Virus record (IMG/VR): IMGVR_UViG_2778261375_000003
Length of the DNA: 64,000 nt
Strand: one strand, 5' to 3'
Source: a virus
Lineage: Duplodnaviria > Heunggongvirae > Uroviricota > Caudoviricetes
Under the pieces are notes generated by a model. The model was not told the DNA's origin and ran no database searches. It worked only from the letters and a program-made list of their open reading frames with translations. Each line of letters opens with the position of its first letter. Position 1 is the stretch's first letter. The position numbers and the translations under genes are program-made. This document shows positions 26,993-62,553 of the stretch, piece after piece.

Positions 26993-27499
26993 TTGAGTAT
27001 TTTCAATAAACACGCACACCAGGAACGTCCGTATATCGTCATAGTTGATATTGATGGAACAATATCAGAGGCAACTGAAGACAGACTGCATTTGCTTCCG
27101 CCACCAGGTAAAGGTGCATTAACAAAGGACTGGAACGAGTTTAATCTCGCCTGTGACACCGATACTCCCATCACTCCAGTTATTGATATGGTGCGCCAGT
27201 TATTTAACGTTTACACGGTCTGGTTTGTAACCGGGCGCTGTGAGATCGCAAGGGATAAAACACGAGCCTGGCTGCGGAAGTACGTAACAAACGGGGCTGA
27301 GCCTTTGCTATCTATGCGTCCTGCCACCGATGACAGAAATGACGGCCCAGCAAAGATTGATCTCCTTAAGAAAATTGGTCTAAGTAAAATCGCGTTCGCG
27401 CTGGAAGATAAGATTGAAGTGGCGCGTGTTTTCAGGAGGAACGGCGTGCTTACGTTAATGGTCAGGGAGTATGAAAATGCGCTTCTTCATCAACAATGA
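26993..27499 (+). CDS. HAD-superfamily phosphatase-like protein
   Basis: VIVDIDGTIS (DxDGT motif I); TTG start per ORF track. Confidence 0.45.
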   Translation: MSIFNKHAHQERPYIVIVDIDGTISEATEDRLHLLPPPGKGALTKDWNEFNLACDTDTPITPVIDMVRQLFNVYTVWFVTGRCEIARDKTRAWLRKYVTNGAEPLLSMRPATDDRNDGPAKIDLLKKIGLSKIAFALEDKIEVARVFRRNGVLTLMVREYENALLHQQ

Positions 27500-27515
27500 T
27501 TGCTCTAATAAATCT
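27499..27515 (+). promoter_or_regulatory. C1-operator-like motif
   Basis: ATTGCTCTAATAAATCT followed by CTTGATTTTTA, the same extension seen at 46545. Confidence 0.55.
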
Positions 27516-40666: not shown

Positions 40667-41860
40667 GTGACCTGGGACGATCACAAGAAGAATTTTGCTC
40701 GCCTGGCGCGAGATGGTGGTTACACCATCGCACAATATGCCGCCGAGTTTAATCTCAACCCAAACACCGCACGTCGTTATCTCCGTGCATTCAAAGAAGA
40801 CACCGGAACAGCGGACAGCCGTAAGCCAAATAAGCCTGTCAGAAAACCACTAAAAAGCATGATCATTGATCACGCTAATGATCAACGTGCAGGTGATCAC
40901 ATTGTGGCTGAAATGGCTGAAAAACAAAGAGTTAATGCTGTTGTCAGTGCCGCAGTCGAGAACGCGAAGCGCCAGAATAAGCGCATAAATGATCGTTCTG
41001 ATGATCATGACGTGATCACCCGCGCCCACCGGACCTTACGTGATCGCCTGGAACGCGACACCCTGGATGATGATGGTGAACGCTTTGAATTCGAAGCTGG
41101 CGATTACCTGATAGATAACGTTGAAGCGCGGAAGGCCGCGCGCGCTATGTTGCGTCGGTCCGGGGCTGATGTTCTGGAAACCACTCTTCTGGAAAAGTCT
41201 CTCTCTCATCTCCTTATGCTGGAGAACGCCAGGGATACGTGTATTCGCTTGGTTCAGGAAATGCGCGATCAGCAAAAAGACGATGATGAAGGAACTCCGC
41301 CTGAATACCGTATCGCGAGCATGCTAAACAGCTGTTCCGCGCAGATAAGCAGCCTGATCAACACCATTTACAGCATCCGGAATAACTATCGAAAAGAAAG
41401 CCGGGAGGCGGAAAAGCACGCTTTGTCTATGGGGCAAGCTGGCATTGTTAAGCTGGCATACGAACGAAAGCGTGAAAACAACTGGTCAGTGCTGGAGGCA
41501 GCTGAATTCATCGAGGCGCATGGAGGGAAAGTACCGCCCCTGATGCTGGAGCAAATCAAAGCCGATCTGCGTGCTCCTAAGACCAATACCGATGATGAGG
41601 AAAGGCAAACAGCCGTCGGTGGCCCTTCTCTTGAAGATCTGGACAAAGTTGCGCGAGAACGGGCCGCCAACCGCCGCGCCGATGCCGCATTGTGGATTGA
41701 GCAGCGTAGGGAAGAAATCGCCGATATCGTTGATACAGGCGGTTATGGAGATGTTGATACTGAAGGTGTATCAAACGACCCATGGCTGGAACAAGACCTG
41801 GACGAAGACGAGGAGGAAGACGAAGAAGTTACCCGCAAGCTATACGGGGATGATGATTAA
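40667..41860 (+). CDS. pacA: Terminase small (pac-recognition) subunit
   Basis: 397 aa; pac hexamer cluster lies in its 5' portion; acidic C-terminal tail. Confidence 0.85.
40860..41018. promoter_or_regulatory. pac: pac packaging site (Dam-methylation-dependent hexamer clusters)
   Basis: Four TGATCA at 40860, 40867, 40879 and 40894, then TGATCG at 40990 and TGATCA at 41002 and 41013; the 4+3 arrangement of GATC hexamers described for P1 pac. Confidence 0.7.
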
Positions 41861-43344
41861 TGGCCAGAAGTTGCGTAACGGATCCACGTTGGCGCGAGCT
41901 GGTGGCGCTATATCGTTATGACTGGATTGCTGCCGCTGATGTTTTGTTCGGCAAAACACCTACCTGGCAGCAGGATCTGATTATTGAGTCTGTGCAGGAA
42001 CAGGGTAGCAAGACATCTGTTTCGTCTGGTCACGGTACCGGGAAATCAGACATGACTTCTATCATGATCATGTTGTTCATAATCATGTATCCAGGTGCCC
42101 GTGCCATTATCGTTGCGAACAAAATTCAGCAGGTAATGACCGGTATATTCAAGTACATCAAGATAAACTGGGCTACTGCCACCAGCCGTTTCCCATGGCT
42201 TGCTGATTATTTTGTTCTGACAGAAACCGCTTTCTATGAGATTACTGGTAAAGGTGTATGGACTGTAGTACCGAAGGGCTTTCGTCTGGGAAGTGAAGAA
42301 GCTCTCGCCGGTGAACACGCAGATCATCTTCTGTATATTATCGATGAAGCCTCCGGTGTCAGTGATAGAGCTTTCGGTATCATCACCGGTGCTCTTACCG
42401 GACAGGATAACCGCATCTTATTGCTGTCACAGCCTACACGCCCAAGCGGCTATTTCTACGATACACACCATAAACTGGCCAAGCGTCCTGGTAACCCTGA
42501 TGGCGTTTATACGGCGATCACGCTTAACAGTGAGGAATCACCGTTGGTAACGCCAGCATTTATCAAAATGAAGCTGGCGGAGTACGGCGGGCGTGATAAC
42601 CCTATGTACATGATTAAGGTACGCGGCCTATTCCCTAAATCACAGGATGGCTTCCTTCTTGGACGTGATGAGGTTGAACGTGCAACGCGGCGGAAAGTCA
42701 AGATTGCCAAAGGATGGGGCTGGCTTGCATGTGTGGACGTTGCTGGTGGTACGGGACGGGATAAGTCCGTTATCAATATCATGATGGTGTCCGGCCAGCG
42801 AAATAAACGCCGTGTAATCAACTATCGAATGCTGGAATACACAGACGTTACAGAAACGCAGCTTGCCGCCAAAATTTTCGCAGAATGTAATCCTGAGCGA
42901 TTCCCCAATATCACCATAGCGATAGACGGCGATGGCCTGGGTAAAGCAACGGCGGATCTGATGTACGAGTATTATGGTATTACCGTACAGCGTATACGCT
43001 GGGGTAAAAAGATGCATAGCCGTGAAGATAAGAGCCTGTACTTTGATAAACGTGCTTATGCCAATGTTCAAGCCGCAGAGGCCGTAAAATCTGGTCGTAT
43101 GAGACTGGATAAGGGTAATGAAACTATTGAGGAAGCGTCGAAAATCCCTGTAGGGATTAACTCCGCAGGTCAATGGAAGGTGATGAGTAAGGAGGATATG
43201 AAGAAAAAACTCAACCTGCACTCACCAGACCATTGGGATACATATTGTTTCGCTATGCTGGCGGATTATGTTCCCCAGGATGAAGTGCTTAGCGTCGAAG
43301 ACGAAGCGCAGGTTGATGAAGCTCTGGCATGGCTTAATGAATGA
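41860..43344 (+). CDS. pacB: Terminase large subunit
   Basis: 494 aa, translationally coupled to pacA (ATGA overlap). Confidence 0.85.
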
Positions 43345-43347
43345 ATA

Positions 43348-43364
43348 TTTGCTCTAATAAATTG
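43348..43364 (+). promoter_or_regulatory. C1-operator-like motif
   Basis: TTTGCTCTAATAAATTG, 4 nt after the pacB stop. Confidence 0.55.
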
Positions 43365-43660
43365 TGTTTTTTAGCTACCGATGTTACATTGAACCTGACC
43401 TCTTGCGCCTTGTGGCATTTTCGGTTTATGCTTATCAGGCACCTCATTAAAACGGGTGCCGGGATTGGCCTCCCGCTTAAGTCTAAGGCGATACAGACGC
43501 CGCTCGCGTCTTTTTTTGTATCGGCGTACACGCACACCTCTACAATGGTGGGCTGTATGGGGCTACCTTCGGGTAGGCTGGTTACCTTGGACGCCAGTAA
43601 GGCCAACTCCGTACAGTCCACCGCCAGCAAGATTGGTCTCTTCTGCGGTGGTTACATACC
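43365..43660 (+). ncRNA. Structured leader upstream of icd-like ORF, possible c4-like antisense-RNA region
   Basis: No credible ORF; intrinsic terminator at 43496..43518 (AGACGC-cgctc-GCGTCT plus T7); further hairpin CCACCGC...GCGGTGG; repeated GTCTAAGG box near the icd RBS. Confidence 0.3.
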
Positions 43661-43682
43661 AACGTCTAAGGAGGCTGCCAAT

Positions 43683-43904
43683 ATGGCTACTATCCCTACC
43701 CCAACTCATCCTGAATTTATCTGGCGCTTTTACTCCTGCCAAAAACGTCACTATCACTTCGTTATTGCACCAACAGAAGATGAGGCCCGCTCTCAGCTTC
43801 CTGACGCCCCATGTATTTTCTCTGCCCGTTTTTCCACTGATTCACGCAATTCTCTCAGTTACTGGTGCCTCCCTGTTAACGCTTCTGCTCAGGAGGGACT
43901 ATGA
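43683..43904 (+). CDS. icd: Icd-like small protein (73 aa)
   Basis: ATG 8 nt after AAGGAGG; 73 codons; stop overlaps the ant start (ATGA), the arrangement known for P1 icd-ant. Confidence 0.5.
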   Translation: MATIPTPTHPEFIWRFYSCQKRHYHFVIAPTEDEARSQLPDAPCIFSARFSTDSRNSLSYWCLPVNASAQEGL

Positions 43905-45019
43905 GAACGTCATTAGTCACCCGTGAAGAGATGATCGAGGCAATTGAACAGCACACTGCCTGTATCAGTACCAGGGATATACCAGGCGTTATTGCCAACT
44001 ACTTCATGATCACCAAACAACTTTACCGGAGAAAGGACAAGAACGCGGTTCACCGTATCCTGTTGTCTGATATCCGCGAATACCTGCTCGAACAGGGTCA
44101 TCTGAATTACGCAACCGTCGCAGCCGAAGCACGCAAGGAGGCACACAGAATGAAAGCAACTAACGTTAAATCAGAAAAAATTCATGCACCTTCAGTTCAG
44201 GAATCGGAGCTGGTGGTTGTTCAGAATCAGTCTGATGAAATTCCCGTTCTGGAATGGCAGGGAGTGCGTGTAGTGACAACCGAGACTCTTGCTAGAGGGT
44301 ATGGGACAGAAACAATCCGTATTCGCCAAAATCATCATGAGAACAAAGTACGCTTTGTTGAAGGGAAGCACTTTTTCAAAGTTGAAGGAGAATCATTGCG
44401 CGAGTTGAAGCACAGAGTAGCTTTAAACTACTCTGTAAAAATTGCTCGCAATGTTCGCTCACTCACCCTCTGGACAGAACGCGGCGCAGCCCGCCACGCT
44501 AAAATGCTCGAAACCGATCAGGCATGGGCATTCTTTGAAAAACTGGAAGACAGCTACTTCCGACAAAAAGAACAGCAACCGATCGCAATCCCCCAGACGC
44601 TTCCTGAAGCCCTACGCCTGGCTGCCGAACTGGCTGAACAAAAGCAACTTCTGGAACAGAAAGCCCACCAGCTAAATCAGCAGCTGGTGGCCGCCGCTCC
44701 TAAAGTCGATTTTGCCGACCGGGTATCAGTAGCTAAAGGGATCCTGATTGGGAATTTTGCAAAGGTTGTTGGACTTAAGCAAAACGCGCTGTTTGTCTGG
44801 TTACGGGAGAACGGCATCCTGATAGCGTCCGGTGGACGTAAAAATGTGCCGTTCCAGCAGTACATCAACGCGGGGTATTTCACGGTGAAAGAAGTGGTGC
44901 TGGATGATGAAGATGGCTACCAGATACGGTTGACGCCTCAATTAACGGGTAAAGGCCAGCAGTGGTTGACGCGTAAACTGCTCGATGCTGGCTTGTTAAA
45001 ACCGGTGGCAGCTGAATAA
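43901..45019 (+). CDS. ant: Antirepressor-like protein (C-terminal KilAC-like domain)
   Basis: 372 aa; C-terminus DFADRVSVAKGILIGNFAKVVGLKQNALFVWLRENGIL. Confidence 0.6.
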   Translation: MRTSLVTREEMIEAIEQHTACISTRDIPGVIANYFMITKQLYRRKDKNAVHRILLSDIREYLLEQGHLNYATVAAEARKEAHRMKATNVKSEKIHAPSVQESELVVVQNQSDEIPVLEWQGVRVVTTETLARGYGTETIRIRQNHHENKVRFVEGKHFFKVEGESLRELKHRVALNYSVKIARNVRSLTLWTERGAARHAKMLETDQAWAFFEKLEDSYFRQKEQQPIAIPQTLPEALRLAAELAEQKQLLEQKAHQLNQQLVAAAPKVDFADRVSVAKGILIGNFAKVVGLKQNALFVWLRENGILIASGGRKNVPFQQYINAGYFTVKEVVLDDEDGYQIRLTPQLTGKGQQWLTRKLLDAGLLKPVAAE

Positions 45020-45051
45020 TGGAAGAATGCCCGGTTGATGCCGGGCATAAT

Positions 45052-45903
45052 TTATTGCGCGCTTTCGGGGTTGTCGTTTACTGGCTGCCCCTTCTTGGTT
45101 TTACGGCTGCGCGTAACTGATGCGGCTGACTTAACCTTTTTCTCTTCGCGAGTGATGGCAATTTGTTTTTTTACATTTTCAATATCTGCCAGGCGATATA
45201 TTTTTGCTTGCGGCCAGCGGTCGCAGATGATCGGTTCTATGGAGTCATAAAGGCTAAATTTTGCTTTTTCGAATTCACCGTTGATGATAATTCCATCACG
45301 GAGAGTTTCATCGCAGATAAACACGCCACACAGTGGCACATGGTAACTAACTGATTTACCATCATTGTAGTTAGGGCTACTGGAAATGTAGTGGACGCGC
45401 AGCATTGTTTCGCTAAAGCCGTGTACGCGCATACGGAATTTTTCATCCTCCGGGTACTGCCTCATTAGCTCTTTTGTTGCTTCCAGGTTCTCTATGTATT
45501 TCGCACTGTGCTCATTGATCCCCGCGCTTTTTTGGATGCGAATGTCCTTATCAATCAGATGAATAATGCGGCCAGCGGTCATGTTGACGCTGTTCACAGC
45601 TTCTGTCTGATAAGTTGTAACCTTGCGCACACCGCGAAGGATGTTAGGCACTGGATATAAAATAGTCTTTGGGATATTGAGGTCTGGGTACTGTTCCAGT
45701 TCCCGCGCCATTAAAGTCCATTTATCAATTTCAGCCTGAATGCTGTCAGTTTCTTTGAACGGTAGAACGACAACCGGGCGTACAGGACGACCGTCGCTGG
45801 CTGTATCAACGTGTTGGGCGCGTGCAACGGCTTTTTTTAGAAAGAGATCCCTGAAGCTGACGAACTCCTGGTACAGTTGTTCGCCGTAGACATAATTTAT
45901 CAT
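45052..45903 (-). CDS. c1: C1 repressor of lysis
   Basis: 283 aa, convergent with pacB/ant and downstream of coi; length and position match P1 C1. Confidence 0.85.
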   Translation of the reverse strand: MINYVYGEQLYQEFVSFRDLFLKKAVARAQHVDTASDGRPVRPVVVLPFKETDSIQAEIDKWTLMARELEQYPDLNIPKTILYPVPNILRGVRKVTTYQTEAVNSVNMTAGRIIHLIDKDIRIQKSAGINEHSAKYIENLEATKELMRQYPEDEKFRMRVHGFSETMLRVHYISSSPNYNDGKSVSYHVPLCGVFICDETLRDGIIINGEFEKAKFSLYDSIEPIICDRWPQAKIYRLADIENVKKQIAITREEKKVKSAASVTRSRKTKKGQPVNDNPESAQ

Positions 45904-46461: not shown

Positions 46462-46478
46462 TAATTTATTAGAGCAAT
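46462..46478 (-). promoter_or_regulatory. C1-operator-like motif
   Basis: AATTTATTAGAGCAAT, the complement of ATTGCTCTAATAAATT. Confidence 0.55.
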
Positions 46479-48657: not shown

Positions 48658-48683
48658 GGCGGCCATTAGGCCGCCTTTTTTTT
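48658..48683 (+). terminator. Intrinsic terminator or attenuator ending 7 nt before the ref start codon
   Basis: GGCGGCC-atta-GGCCGCC followed by T8. Confidence 0.5.
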
Positions 48684-48689
48684 GACCAT

Positions 48690-49250
48690 ATGAAAACAAT
48701 CGAACAAAAAATTGAACAGTGCCGCAAGTGGCAGAAGGCAGCCAGAGAACGAGCGATCGCTCGGCAACGGGAGAAGTTGGCTGATCCGGTCTGGCGAGAA
48801 TCTCAATATCAGAAAATGCGGGATACTATCGACCGCCGTATCGCTAAACAGAAAGAGCGCCCACCAGCCAGCAAAACGCGGAAAAGCGCGGTAAAAATAA
48901 AATCTCGTGGCTTGAAGGGGAGAACACCAACGGCGGAGGAACGGCGCATCGCCAATGCTCTTGGCGCTCTCCCCTGCATTGCCTGCTACATGCATGGAGT
49001 AATATCTGAAGAGGTGTCTCTGCACCATATCTCCGGTCGTACCGCGCCGGGTTGTCACAAAAAGCAATTGCCCCTTTGCAGATGGCACCACCAGCATGCA
49101 GCACCGGCTGAAGTAAGAGAAAAATACCCTTGGCTGGTCCCTGTTCATGCCGATGGTGTGGTTGGAGGCAAGAAAGAATTCACCTTGCTGAACAAGTCAG
49201 AGATGGAGTTACTGGCTGACGCCTATGAGATGGCAAACATCATGCACTAA
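48690..49250 (+). CDS. ref: Recombination enhancement function (HNH endonuclease)
   Basis: 186 aa MKTIEQKIEQCRKWQKAARERAIARQREKL...; HNH-like CIACYMHG ... HH ... CRWHH. Confidence 0.85.
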   Translation: MKTIEQKIEQCRKWQKAARERAIARQREKLADPVWRESQYQKMRDTIDRRIAKQKERPPASKTRKSAVKIKSRGLKGRTPTAEERRIANALGALPCIACYMHGVISEEVSLHHISGRTAPGCHKKQLPLCRWHHQHAAPAEVREKYPWLVPVHADGVVGGKKEFTLLNKSEMELLADAYEMANIMH

Positions 49251-51989: not shown

Positions 51990-54900
51990 TTATGCGTATT
52001 GTTGGATGACGGCCAGAACGTCCGCCACGTTGTGTTTTGTCTCGATAATCCACCAGTTACCCGGGAAATCGCTGTTCTTTGCCTTCGCTGGCAGCCAGCG
52101 AGCGCCGAATTTCGCCTTGATTGCGTCTTTCGCACGGAAAAGAATGCCTTTCATGCCGGACGCCTCCTGAAGCCCAAATACCTCGCCAGCGGCGAATTTT
52201 GGTGCGTACATCATCTTCAGGTCGGCGGTGGATACGCGATAATTCAGACCAAGAGACTGAGCTATGCTGGTGGCATCACCCTGTATTGATGATAACTCTT
52301 CTTGTTTCTCGTTTCTGGCGGCAATTTCTTCCTCCGTGATGTTGCCAAGGGCCAGGTTTATCCGATCAGCGTCTGCCTGTTTCTCTTCATCGGTGCGCCC
52401 GGCAAGTACCGTGTTAATTCTGTGCAATATCTCCACATGATTCTTGCGCATGCTGAGCAATTCCGGCGTAACCTCGTTAAGGTCCACCAGCCCAAGGATG
52501 GCAAGGTCGGTAAACATTGATACCAGGTTGTAGGTCATGCGATAGCTGAGTTGCCCATAGGCTGATGGCAACTGCACCGCATCCATTTGATAGGCATCCA
52601 TAAATTTAGAGCCGTCGTTTACGACATCCGCAATTGCCGGTGTGATTTTCCCTGTGGTGGCGGCCTCCCTGATTGCTGTTACCCACGATTGAGTCAGCGC
52701 GGCGACTGCATGATTCAGATTGGCTTTCCGTTCTGCTGCAATGCGCGCGCTTGCTGCGTCCATTGCCTGCTTGATCTCGTCTTTATTGCTGTAAATGCCA
52801 ATGGTGCCAAACTGTGCTGTGGTGATCTCATAATCTGACGCCCGGAACTCATTGGTACCGAAAATGGCATTGGTGACTTCAAGTTCAGAATCCCCGTTAC
52901 GAGTAGCCCCCTGGCTTGTTTTCTCCGGCATTCTGGCGATCGCATCCGCTATTTTCTCCTGAATTGCTTCAGGGGATAGCGTATCTCCGTATGACGCGAT
53001 TACATCGCCATAATTGGAGCCAAACAGTTCAACCAGGAATGCTTCTGCCGAACGGATCTGGCGGTTATTCCCTTCCGACATCATACCAAGCACCCATTTT
53101 GCAATTGACGACTTCAGCGCGCCGTCACGGCGATCCGGGTAAACCGCATGCTTCAGTGGGTCCGTATAGGTACCAACAAAATCAATGCTATAGCCTGACT
53201 CTGTAGTCTGAACGCCGTATGAGTCAGTGATTTTGATCATGCCGCGCTGCTGGAAACGGTAGAAATCGTCACAGGAAACGATGTCGTTAATCCCGGCGAT
53301 GGAGACGCCACCACTGATTTTCTGCATAACAGCATCTTCATCGGGAGTTACATCAACCTGTTTATCCAGCGTCTTCACATCCCAGTTACCCGATTTGGTG
53401 CCTTTGAAGGTAAAGATGATCTCCACATCTGCGCGCTGGCTGTCGAAGTCCAGCGACTTAATGCGAACGATATCACCAGCACAATCATAGTATTGGCCTA
53501 CACGCCATGAGCGATCGCCGATAACAAGGAACTCACTCGCATGGTTAACCAGGTCAGGATCAACATCCAGAATGCCTTTATTTATTGCATCCTCCACCAG
53601 CGGGCGCAGGCGTTTGATATCCGTCGCGGCCTTCTGAGTACGGTTCAATAATTTCTCATAGCGGGAGATGGCTTGAGTGATATTAGCCTTGCGCTGAATG
53701 GCGCTTTTCAACGACGCGCGATACTGTGCTAACAACATACGGTCTGTGTGATGGACGCTACCCCAGCGGGCTTTCCAGTCTGCGTTATCAGCTGCTTTGG
53801 CCATTACCGCCTGTTTGAATTTAGCTACCTCGGCGGTGGTCTTTTCAAGTTCCGCTTTGCTTCGCTCTAATTCAGCGGTAAGTACCTCCACATCCTCGCC
53901 AGCTGCGTGCTGCGCCTTGATGTAGTTCTGAAGGTCGATAGTAGCCTGTTCTTTCTGGCGAGCGCGTTGCGCGGCTTTCGCCTTATCCATTTGAACCTGC
54001 ATCATTGCCAGACGTTCGCCATCATCCTTAGCGGTATACATCTGCATTTCGATCATATCGTTGGCGTCGGCGTTCTCCATTTCTGACTTATCTGAACGGA
54101 GGATATCGGAGATCCAGCCTGCTTTACGCTTCAGCGTCTTCAGTCGGTATTCATCGAAAGAACCCTTGCCGCAGTAGTAGTGAACGCGAACGCTTGCACG
54201 GTTGGAGCCAACTCGGGCACCGCGACCGTTTCGTTGCGCAATACTGGCTGGAGTCCATGGCAACGTCAGATGATGGATGTCAGTCGTTCCTCGATGCAGG
54301 TTGATACCCACCTCTGCCTTTTTGTTGCAGATGATGATCGGAGTCCGGCCCTCCTGGAAGTCGGCTGCAATCTTTTCCAGACCGCCCAACGACATTTCAT
54401 TTTGCTGCGCGATATAGGCGTCATACAGAGCCATTTGCTCGTTGTATTTCGCTATCTGTGCATCTGTTGGTTCATCCGGTAACTCTTTCGGCGGTTTAAC
54501 CGCTTTCAGTTTCTTACCGGTTTTACCTGCCTCGGCAACCGTCTGAGCATTCAGTATCCCCACCTTTGAAGGTTCAAGGTTAAGAGCATTGCAGATAATG
54601 CGCTTGAGCTTCTGGTGCTGCGTTTTTTCATCGGTGAAGATGATTTGCTTACCTTCCGGGAAAAACTCCTTCAGCGTGGCAATCAGCTTCGCGTATTTGG
54701 GCGTAACGGGGTGAGTTACGGTCTGTTCGTCAATGCCAAACCTGGCCAGGCGCTTATTCACTTCCTGCTCGAACGCTTCCGGAACCTGCAACTGAATAAA
54801 CTCGCCCTTATCTATCAGGGAGTATTGCGATTGCTGCGTGATTGAATCATCACTGTCGTCGTCTTCGCTGGTGGCTTGTTTAGGCAAACTGTCTGCCAGC

Positions 54901-57900
54901 TGCTGCACCGCATCGGCGTACTCCGGCAGGAAACGATAGGTGATCCGGCGATAGTACAGGTCCATGTCAGTACATACGCGGTCCATATCCCTGATTATTG
55001 AGAAGATCGGACGGGCTTTCTCGTGCTCAATCACGCCGTCTTCATTGACCGAGGTCGTTACACCATTGTTGGCTTTGGCCGCCGCTTCCGCCTGCTGACG
55101 CAATTCTTCATACGCCGCCAGTTGTTCTTCAGTAAGTGGTGCATCCTGCTGGTGTTCGTCCAGTTCCGGGATCTCCACGGTATCCTTAACGTCTTCCGCC
55201 GTTTTAAGCGTTGTCCAGCGATGGAATATGCCGCGCAGCGCATCAAGGTTTTCAAAACCCACCAGCGCCATTTTTTCTTCAACTTCGCCGCTGATTTTCT
55301 GTACCGTTTCCAGCCTGGTCTTGCCGAAGAATTTAACGAAGTCATCAGGACCGTAGATCCCCATCTTCTGCCAGTATTCCTTCGGCAGAACATGAGAAAG
55401 CATGTTGTATGCATCGATCGGGGTGTTAACGACTGGCGTTGCAGTCAGGAGAACCGGTCCACGCCCACCATTCTTTTTCATCAGGTACGCGTTTTTGATT
55501 GCCATATCTCGCGCCGATTGCGCCACCGCGCTGGTGGGCAGATAGGCCAGCTGTGACGCTTCGCGACCATTTTTATAGCTATTGCGGTAGTTGTGGCCTT
55601 CGTCAGCAATCACGCTGTCGAAGCCCATATCCTCAAAGTACGGATACTTCTCTGCTTTTTCGGTACCGGTATCTGAATACTCCGACAATACCCGGCGACG
55701 CGCCGCCTCTTTGCGATGGGAATCGGAGTCCATTGCGCTGGCCACACGCCCGGCAGCAACGAAGTCATAAAGCATGTCTTGTGCATGCTCATCTACGGTG
55801 TCATCACGTAGCGGAATGCGGGCGTATTGTTCTTTGGTAAACACGACTGCACGGTAGTTTGAGTGCGGGATCGCGTTCATCCGCGCCGTGATAGTGGCTT
55901 CATCTGCCAGCTTAAGAGCATCGCGCATAACTGGAGTGCCATCAGTACCAAGAACAGGTTTACCGTTCTCATTGAGCACCGGCACCTGGCGAATCTGATC
56001 GCCATCCATCAGCACATCAAGACCGACGAACAAGTAGTTACTGAATGCCTCTTCACTCAGGAATTCTTTTGCTTCGTAATACCAATTTTCCAGCACTGAT
56101 TTAGGCACTACATACGCAGTACGGGTAGAGCGACCGTTCTCATAGTTGAACGCCTCAAGCGCCAGCGCGGTCGTGGTTTTACCCAGCCCGGTGCCGAAGC
56201 CCAGGATGCCGCGCCCATCTTCGGACAGTCGGCGCACCTCGCTATTCTGGTAATCAAATGGCTGGCGCTTACCGCTTAATCCCTTCAACCCAAGCGGATC
56301 GCCAGAGTGTTCATACGGGATATTGCTATTGAACACATCGTTGTATTTGGCAACCAGCTCATCGTAGCGATCGTGCGTCTTGATCCACTTATTGAACTGG
56401 TCCTCAAGCAGTGCCATCTGCTCGCGGTAGCCGTTCGCCGTCGCGCTATCTTTGCCACCGATACGCGCACCATTGAGATACTTTTCCAGCTGTGCCGGGA
56501 ACCCGGTCGCGTTTTCACCCGATTTACGGTCCCACTCGTAGCGGATCTCGCCTGTTTCTTTATCCTTGCGCTGGACGACACCGTATCGGTGCCCGACGAA
56601 CAGACCATCACCACCGTGATAGGTGTCAGAAACCATTTCGTCGCCTTCCAGCTGCACTGACTGCACATAGCGCAGATCCGGATAGCCGTTTTCCTGCAAA
56701 AATTCCAGAATGACGGAGCGGTCGAACCAACGGCTATTGAGCTTAAAGCGAATATTCTCTGCTGACGTCTTGATGCGCTTCTCTTCGATCGCTGCCAGCT
56801 GATTAAGGACGTTGTTCTTTACTGGACCGTCGGGGAGTGTGGCAAGAAATTCCTGTTTTGGAGCCACTATCTCGTTAATGTCGCCGCTGGTGGCGCGGGC
56901 GAACGGAACAATCCCGCCATACGGTGAAACCGCAATACCAGGGGTGCTGGCCAATAAATTAAGCAACTCTTCATCACTGGCTGGCAGTTCGCCGGTAAAC
57001 GCAAAGCGGAAATCATCGAGCTGGATTGGATCGCGGGTAAGATCGCTATAGAGATAACGCAGGGTGTCCTGATAGCTGGTGGAGTCATAACTGGCGCTGG
57101 AATCATGCGTAACCAGCTTTCCTGTCAGCTCGTCAGAAATAGTGCCATCCAGCTTAATCGCACCACGGAAAGCAAACCAGGCGCGCGCACCGCTCCCCGA
57201 CAATTTCGCTATCGGACCGCGACCGGGGTTACCAAAACGGTCAATCTCTGCCTGCAAACGGGATACCAGAGAAAGGCGCTGCTGTTCGATTTGTTCAGCA
57301 CTATGCCCGGCGGCCTTCATGTCCTGATATTCAATTAACATCCGGCCAATCATCGCCCCGCGATACAAGCGTTCACGGTATTTTTCAGGCTGGCTGTTAA
57401 TCCAGTCCACCAGCTGCACCATATCGTCGCTGATTGATGTGGTGTACTTATCGCGGACATTTGCCATCTGGGTAAATGTCATGCCGAGACGGCCTTCTGT
57501 TGTAGTCAGGTTACGCTGAAGAGCCTCCCAGCTATCCGCGCCATAACTGGCAGCATCGATCTTAAGTTCCTTCCCGGCATCAGCTTCAATCCAGCGACCA
57601 CCAGCATATTTTTGCCATACGCCATTAATCAGGCGCATTTCCCCTTCACCAACAACGTCTGCGGTCGGTGACGGTTCAGCCATATCGAGCAAAGACCAGT
57701 CGATACGGCTTTCGAAACGATGAATCAGCTTCGCTTTAAGAGCCTGGTTATCAATCTGACCGTCGGCACGAACCTCAATACGCCCCTGGAAGCCCTTTTC
57801 CTGGGTGCCATGAACAAACCGGCGGCCGTCCTTTTCAAACCACTTGCCAGAAATAAACGTTGGCCAAAGCACATTTGCCGATTCGAGAGTGCTTTCATCC

Positions 57901-62536: not shown

Positions 62537-62553
62537 ATTGCTCTAATTAATTT
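62537..62553 (+). promoter_or_regulatory. C1-operator-like motif upstream of ssb
   Basis: ATTGCTCTAATTAATTT, 20 nt before the ssb start. Confidence 0.55.

Follow-up and report, generated by a model that had tools for sequence, protein, structure and literature searches.

A probable second immI-type switch, built on a P4-type RNA cassette, beside c1 in a P1-like phage-plasmid

The 64,000-nucleotide (nt) stretch of IMG/VR virus record IMGVR_UViG_2778261375_000003 (here the window, meaning the whole of the DNA analyzed) derives from a P1-like phage-plasmid, with parB and parA at 1 to 3.3 kb, and carries a 1.7-kb unit between its pacB and c1 genes. This unit is probably a second self-contained immI-type switch beside c1, consisting of an antirepressor operon shut by its own antisense RNA and additional to the canonical immI of these plasmids. 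The RNA elements, their complementarity and covariation, the gene architecture, and the co-residence with a canonical immI in relatives are directly observed, and the RNA logic of the lock is well supported. The kind of switch is already known from P1, in which synthesis of Ant is blocked by the C4 RNA and ant apparently cannot be expressed unless icd is (PMC8201110 and PMC8546580; the P1 mechanism is taken from these and papers cited there [Citron & Schuster 1990, 1992; Riedel 1993; Heinrich 1994]). The unit joins a predicted P4-type RNA lock to P1-type icd-ant genes.

Homology to P1 breaks at the pacB stop (43342) and picks up again at the c1 stop (45053), such that a block at window positions 43345 to 45052 replaces the 24-bp pacB-c1 spacer of P1; the C1 protein itself is 99% identical to that of P1. 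Canonical P1, P7, and phiW39 have no such unit at the pacB-c1 junction, and P7 and phiW39 match the pacB end only. A preliminary description of this DNA, made from its letters and open reading frames (ORFs), had stated that pacB is followed by c1 in P1, which the 24-bp spacer bears out, and had pointed to the lack of kilA and repL downstream of the unit, where c1 indeed adjoins instead. The convergent ant and c1 genes are separated by a terminator hairpin that is not present in the P1 spacer. The P1 spacer (CTCATTAACCATGCCGGATGGAAA; locus L004, 5208-5231) holds an ATGCCGG motif resembling the right arm of this hairpin, and this motif could be what a deletion in the P1 lineage left behind.

The leader of the unit contains matches to two RNA families above their gathering scores, an isrK or P4 seqA-type leader RNA and a C4 antisense RNA, with an intrinsic terminator at the end of the former (Table 1). 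The mature-like core of C4 spans 43547 to 43625, and its ViennaRNA fold (-41.6 kcal/mol, z = -3.35) leaves unpaired the two segments expected to contact targets, b' in a 10-nt hairpin loop and a' at the junction. Hairpin 2 is visible in both this fold and the Rfam alignment, and pairing in the 16-bp outer stem is complete (100%) and includes seven compensatory pairs. Matches to family RF03163 (c4-a1b1) occur in P1 and in the canonical immI of relatives but not in the pacB-c1 unit, whose a1 and b1 sites sit in the isrK-type element. The Prokaryotic Genome Annotation Pipeline (PGAP) labels the isrK/C4 leader as an 'ash family protein' coding sequence (CDS) or pseudogene (window 43345-43660; L090, 1497-1814; L091, 2637-3665; L093, 8168-8584), and in the P4 reference record a 'cI gene product (AA 1-137)' CDS overlies the C4/CI RNA match; both annotations look like protein calls over RNA genes.

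Downstream of the leader, the icd-like gene codes for a protein with 80% identity to P1 Icd, and its stop overlaps the ant start in a 4-nt ATGA (43901-43904), as in P1. The Ant protein contains an ORF6N domain (amino acids [aa] 116 to 202; PF10543, 70.1 bits) and a KilAC domain (aa 260 to 361; PF03374, 107.9 bits), and its relationship to P1 Ant1 falls into three parts, with aa 1 to 85 being ∼65% identical, aa 86 to 228 unrelated, and aa 229 to 372 ∼92% identical. The central ORF6N part is 60 to 68% identical to domains of antirepressors from Shiga toxin (Stx) phages and is swapped among otherwise near-identical units; some pacB-c1 units (L011 and L044) have a P1-type center. No solved structures are similar to Ant by sequence. 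The unit is thus organized with the P1 immI architecture that the preliminary description had proposed, namely a C1-operator-like site after pacB, a structured leader with an intrinsic terminator, and a 73-codon ORF with a strong ribosome-binding site whose stop overlaps the start of a 372-aa KilAC-type antirepressor. The terminator, placed there at 43496 to 43518, differs by a single position (the stem is at 43495 to 43511, followed by seven T residues), and the ATG of the ORF is at 43683 rather than 43684. The immI likeness was correctly recognized, but the isrK/P4 seqA type of the leader, the Ant2-type start at codon 84, and the three-part mosaic of Ant were missed.

In several relatives, the ant gene of the unit is broken by the insertion sequences ISVsa5, IS1203, and ISSen4 (L090, 2252-3460; NC_013370.1; NZ_CP060066.1), and the module is therefore evidently dispensable in those hosts. 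In phage vB_EcoM-673R5 (L002), which is 99.3% identical, pacA, c1, and ant are each split into several short CDS, and 1-nt indels bring the leader under the gathering score for isrK; these splits and indels are probably sequencing or assembly errors.

Table 1. Features of the pacB-c1 unit and its flanks, in window coordinates
Feature	Position	Strand	Details
pacA	40667-41860		
pacB	41860-43344		
C1-operator-like 17-mer	43348-43364	+	TTTGCTCTAATAAATTG; 2 mismatches to P1 consensus ATTGCTCTAATAAATTT, both at terminal positions
Putative C1-controlled promoter	43362-43390	+	-35 TTGTGT 43362-43367, 17-nt spacer, -10 TACATT 43385-43390
Putative constitutive leader promoter	43403-43432	+	-35 TTGCGC, 18-nt spacer, -10 TATGCT
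isrK / P4 seqA-type leader RNA	43439-43516	+	Rfam RF01394, 60.8 bits (gathering score 50)
a1	43465-43471	+	TTGGCCT, in leader
b1	43481-43488	+	GTCTAAGG, in leader
Intrinsic terminator of leader	43495-43517	+	Stem 43495-43511, then T7 run
C4 antisense RNA	43541-43628	+	Rfam RF01695, 75.9 bits, E 4.7e-13 (gathering score 45)
b'	43585-43592	+	CCTTGGAC, in C4
a'	43600-43606	+	AGGCCAA, in C4
a2	43633-43639	+	TTGGTCT, upstream of icd; one G-U pair with a'
b2	43664-43671	+	GTCTAAGG; overlaps icd Shine-Dalgarno 43668-43674
icd ribosome-binding site	43668-43674	+	AAGGAGG
icd-like gene, 73 aa	43683-43904	+	NCBIfam NF033153 'Icd-like', 49.8 bits (cut-off 25); phrog_1426, 154 bits
ant (Ant1-type), 372 aa	43901-45019	+	phrog_63 'anti-repressor Ant', 441 bits, full length
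Nested in-frame Ant2-type start	ATG 44150 (codon 84)	+	AAGGAGG in front; conserved; P1 ant2 likewise at codon 84
Terminator hairpin between convergent ant and c1	45027-45048	+	9-bp stem ATGCCCGG...CCGGGCAT, then AATTTATT
c1	45052-45903	-	coi and cre beyond

The C4 RNA of the unit has complementarity to four target sites positioned as in P1, two in the leader (a1 and b1) and two upstream of icd (a2 and b2); P1 C4, for comparison, has the a' sequence CTGTCAA and the b' sequence TCACTAAC, which pair with its own a1/b1 and a2/b2. In a shuffle test, each site singly is expected by chance at 1.3 to 2.4%, and all four jointly were found in 0/200,000 shuffles. The preliminary description had suggested a search for a'/b' complementarity to a2/b2 as a check on its proposal, and this complementarity is both present and covarying, with b2 lying on the icd ribosome-binding site. 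With Icd as a probe, 79 IMG/VR loci were recovered, about 60 of which are organized as pacB-unit-c1, and the survey sample comprised 81 loci. The isrK-type units among the IMG/VR and genome loci have five a/b combinations built from three a-types and three b-types, and a1 agrees with a' and b1 with b' in all of them (63/63), the three copies of a site varying in concert. Across 27 distinct aligned sequences, pairing is 100% in each of the four helices (a1-a', b1-b', a'-a2, and b'-b2), compared with 31 to 56% for slid controls, and these helices include pairs altered on both sides (four each in a1-a' and a'-a2, and three each in b1-b' and b'-b2). Canonical-type units, with five b-types and two a-types, follow the same pairing rule. 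Predicted b'-b2 duplex energies separate cognate pairs (-10 to -11.5 kcal/mol) from noncognate pairs (-1.5 to -7.6 kcal/mol).

Two candidate promoters, both proposed from comparison with P1 and from conservation, lie between pacB and the leader RNA. The upstream one has a -35 that the C1-operator-like site overlaps by 3 nt, the same geometry as is annotated for P1 Oc4/P2c4, and operator-like sites with up to three mismatches are abundant in the window (16 versus 0.31 expected). These dispersed 17-mers include sites at 11673-11689, 11684-11700, 27499-27515, 46462-46478, and 62537-62553, with those at 11673 and 11684 forming an overlapping inverted pair. The hexamers of the downstream, putatively constitutive promoter have been kept in units that lie at another locus (L037 and L047), and transcription from it is predicted to begin at about 43439, exactly where the isrK model has its position 1.

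The preliminary description took the position of the unit to imply a rearranged or minimal immunity region, in which immI has moved to the pacB-c1 gap and left kilA-repL behind. The content of the window is compatible with such a move, in that a scan with Rfam and for icd identifies a single C4 and a single icd, P1 sim, kilA, and repL have no match anywhere in the window, and a BLAST comparison of P1 46000-53000 against the window finds similarity solely at icd/ant (43710-45010). However, the window begins at parB, 5.7 to 8.8 kb downstream of the canonical immI position, and the absence of immI from it therefore says nothing. Near-identical plasmids carry both regions. Window positions 1 to 25000 map to NZ_CP103764.1 from 61907 with 99.2% identity (99.5% for the unit), and this plasmid has both the pacB-c1 unit and canonical icd-ant-kilA-repL genes at 53115-56207, 5.7 to 8.8 kb before the point corresponding to the window start. 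NZ_CP128965.1 has a unit that is 100% identical together with a canonical c4-icd-ant-kilA-repL region, whose immI has c4-a1b1 and C4 Rfam matches and a P7-like specificity. At least two places matching the unit query are present in 28 of the 30 best-matching plasmids listed, and the canonical ant locus is among these places in both relatives that were inspected. Because relatives contain canonical immI as well as the unit, the unit is an additional module rather than a relocated one, and a move of immI to this site is very improbable. Contigs with two or three modules always have modules of differing specificities, and the unit and the canonical immI of the same plasmids have different RNA specificities, such that their locks would be independent of each other.

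On the precedents of P1 and Gifsy-1, the additional switch would be expected to operate from a weak constitutive promoter firing at about 43439, joined in the absence of C1 by the upstream promoter overlapped by the operator. Most transcripts would end at the leader terminator, yielding an IsrK/seqA-type RNA of ∼78 nt that displays a1 and b1, and read-through transcripts would hold C4 (∼79 nt), which RNase P probably excises, by analogy with P1. The a' and b' segments of C4 would then pair with a2 and b2 on the icd-ant mRNA. As b2 covers the icd ribosome-binding site, icd would be untranslated when C4 pairs, and because of the ATGA overlap ant1 would be silent too, with Rho polarity a presumed part of the process. 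The leader a1 and b1 sites would compete for C4. Upon entry into a cell lacking that C4 type, or after loss of C1, the targets may outrun C4, such that Icd and Ant1/Ant2 are made, and Ant would most likely inactivate C1 and bring about a shift to lytic growth. By analogy with P1 and P7, the most likely use of such a switch is in heteroimmunity contests between P1-like elements.

Several points weigh against this account of a second immI-type switch. The unit is known here from sequence alone. A consensus promoter scan upstream of the leader reported none, and both putative promoters are weak, with 7/12 consensus positions each. A terminator sits between these promoters and C4, and expression of both C4 and ant therefore depends on read-through. 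At the a sites, the a'-a2 helix of the present type has a G-U pair, and crude duplex energies do not separate cognate from noncognate types; the covariation goes back to a small number of independent changes (the locus has three a-types and three b-types), although the types assort independently. Finally, because Ant and P1 Ant1 are unrelated over the central third, binding to C1 is not assured.

The composition of Ant is also where a different target could be sought, with the RNA lock functioning as described but Ant acting on repressors that belong to lambdoid or Stx prophages or other elements in the same cell, or the module engaging in cross-talk with P4-like integrative elements in which the same RNA cassette is present. 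The exchangeable ORF6N center, with its similarity to Stx-phage domains rather than to P1 Ant1, would fit this, as would an RNA cassette nearly identical to that of a chromosomal integrase-primase element. Even so, the Ant1-specific N terminus and the KilAC C terminus are both P1-like, some pacB-c1 units have a P1-type center, and the unit adjoins c1 with a C1-operator-like site of its own; we regard a target other than C1 as unlikely. It is scarcely credible that the unit is a decaying, nonfunctional duplicate or that its leader is protein coding. The pseudogene calls by PGAP and the insertion elements in ant of some relatives could be taken that way, but the ORFs of the unit are intact, the unit is widely maintained among plasmids in PLSDB, two RNA families match in the leader, and the RNA pairing is kept by compensatory changes. 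The 187-aa ORF at 43341-43904, which the preliminary description had already suspected to be the leader read in frame with icd, has a protein-family match at residues 126 to 165 only, and these are the icd part.

Units between pacB and c1 are common. Junction sequence is available for 703 plasmids in PLSDB, of which 315 have a P1-like empty junction and about 388 a split one; the present unit type accounts for at least 290 plasmids. The leader and icd are found together in 320 of 5426 complete Escherichia coli genomes, and a C4 at least 99% identical to that of the window occurs in 134 records, mostly plasmids. The unit is also present in phages RCS47, vB_EcoM-673R5, and JL22. Literature searches on the pacB-c1 insertion returned passing mentions only, of which that by Venturini et al. 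concerns RCS47 and includes no RNA analysis, and a second c4/icd region has been noted in the literature for D6-like plasmids. The unit is thus widespread in databases and essentially uncharacterized.

Relatives hold further c4-icd-ant cassettes at three other sites, equivalent to window positions ∼16855-16921, ∼48681-49242, and ∼49959, all of which are empty in the window (L074 to L089). The leaders of these cassettes are of the c4-a1b1 type, and their operator is a palindromic double site (TCTAATAAATTTGATTTATTAGAGC); a single contig has three icd copies (L017, L083, and L088). Units of the isrK type are also present at the canonical immI site, just ahead of kilA (L037 and L047), and this type of leader is therefore not restricted to pacB-c1. 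A 3.8-kb contig (L010; JAFAFU010000035.1) of a metagenome-assembled genome assigned to 'Bacillota bacterium' codes for P1-like icd-ant-c1 products with 96 to 99% protein identity and is probably a binning or contamination artifact. Elsewhere in the window there are three plus-strand tRNA genes (12358-12430, 12436-12508, and 14139-14211; Rfam, 64.7 to 74.5 bits), as expected for a P1-like genome.

By similarity of its parts, the unit is a mosaic of a P4-type RNA cassette, a P1-like icd and P1-like Ant ends, and a Stx-phage-like ORF6N center. A chromosomal counterpart of the RNA cassette is in an integrase-primase element of E. coli EC12 (L092; chromosome 3674.5 to 3675.1 kb), in which a block of ∼250 nt spanning isrK, C4, a2, and b2 is nearly identical to window 43441-43690; downstream of this block lie a different Icd-like gene and a primase. 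The cassette precedes primase genes in both L091 and L092, and a related element in E118 has the same a-type with a different but internally consistent b-type. The segment at 43345-43437, which includes the operator, is common to pacB-c1 units of all specificities and is not in the EC12 element; for this reason, specificity appears to be exchanged as a cassette.

A broader interpretation, which we consider quite unlikely as it stands, is that P1-like phage-plasmids and P4-like integrative elements share one pool of interchangeable immunity-RNA cassettes and repress each other in trans. With RNA blocks as similar as those of the plasmid and the EC12-type element, the locked operons would then be mutually repressed, these being icd-ant on the plasmid and the icd-like gene with the primase on the island. 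If this were so, decoy leader RNA from an induced P1-like plasmid could derepress the island, giving a satellite a means of eavesdropping at the RNA level on a P1-type helper, or the reverse, and the build-up of orthogonal cassettes in a plasmid, to as many as three or four with a and b types combined, would reflect an arms race over unlocking.

P1 is the reference plasmid prophage, and its immunity is usually described with a single immI, whereas roughly half of the sequenced P1-like plasmids have the gap beside c1 filled. Predictions of induction and superinfection based on reference P1 may therefore not hold for the P1-like plasmids of clinical and veterinary E. coli, including those carrying resistance genes. 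The near-identical cassette on a chromosomal integrase-primase element suggests a testable cross-immunity between unrelated mobile elements, and the natural a/b variants could serve as ready-made orthogonal antisense pairs.

The immI regions of P1 and P7 are among the closest known systems, with a C1 operator (operator-like here) over an upstream promoter and a second promoter downstream (both putative here), sites in the order a1/b1, a'/b' within C4, and a2/b2, of which b2 lies over the ribosome-binding site of icd, and a 73-aa icd overlapping ant1 at ATGA, an ant2 start at codon 84, and a closely related KilAC end. The unit differs from them in being an extra copy between pacB and c1 rather than beside sim and kilA-repL, in having a and b sequences unrelated to the P1 and P7 types, and in having an ORF6N Ant center. 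Unlike P1 immI, it also has an isrK (RF01394) rather than a c4-a1b1 (RF03163) leader and a canonical intrinsic terminator before C4, none being found in P1 by the same scan.

In the immunity region of P4 (seqA, CI RNA, and seqC), Rfam finds isrK and then C4, as in the unit, and the RNA cassette at 43441-43690 has counterparts with 87% to ∼100% nucleotide identity in P4-like chromosomal elements. A gap of ∼25 nt separates isrK from C4 here compared with ∼108 nt in P4, and P1-type icd-ant genes lie downstream here, whereas the P4 RNA controls the replication (alpha) operon, by transcription termination as summarized in PMC4825925. In Stx-converting lambdoid phages, an isrK and C4 cassette that is 79 to 80% identical lies ahead of Rha/Ant genes in many, and there is a related ORF6N antirepressor domain; two GenBank Stx-phage records annotate the cassette as 'isrK' and 'C4 antisense RNA', although the downstream genes and the repressor system are otherwise different.

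The isrK-orf45-anrP region of Salmonella prophage Gifsy-1 offers a further parallel, and Hershko-Shalev et al. (2016; PMC4825925) describe P4 seqA as structurally homologous to IsrK. As in the unit, Gifsy-1 has an isrK-type RNA with its own terminator, and, as proposed for the unit, read-through yields an mRNA on which translation of an antirepressor is coupled to that of a small ORF ahead of it; this antirepressor is trans-activated by IsrK (PMC4825925). Gifsy-1 also has STnc1160, a processed RNA of ∼80 nt that is downstream of isrK and complementary to it (PMC4825925). The unit is distinguished from Gifsy-1 by its small ORF, which is a P1-type 73-aa icd rather than orf45, and by its host, a plasmid prophage with a C1 repressor.

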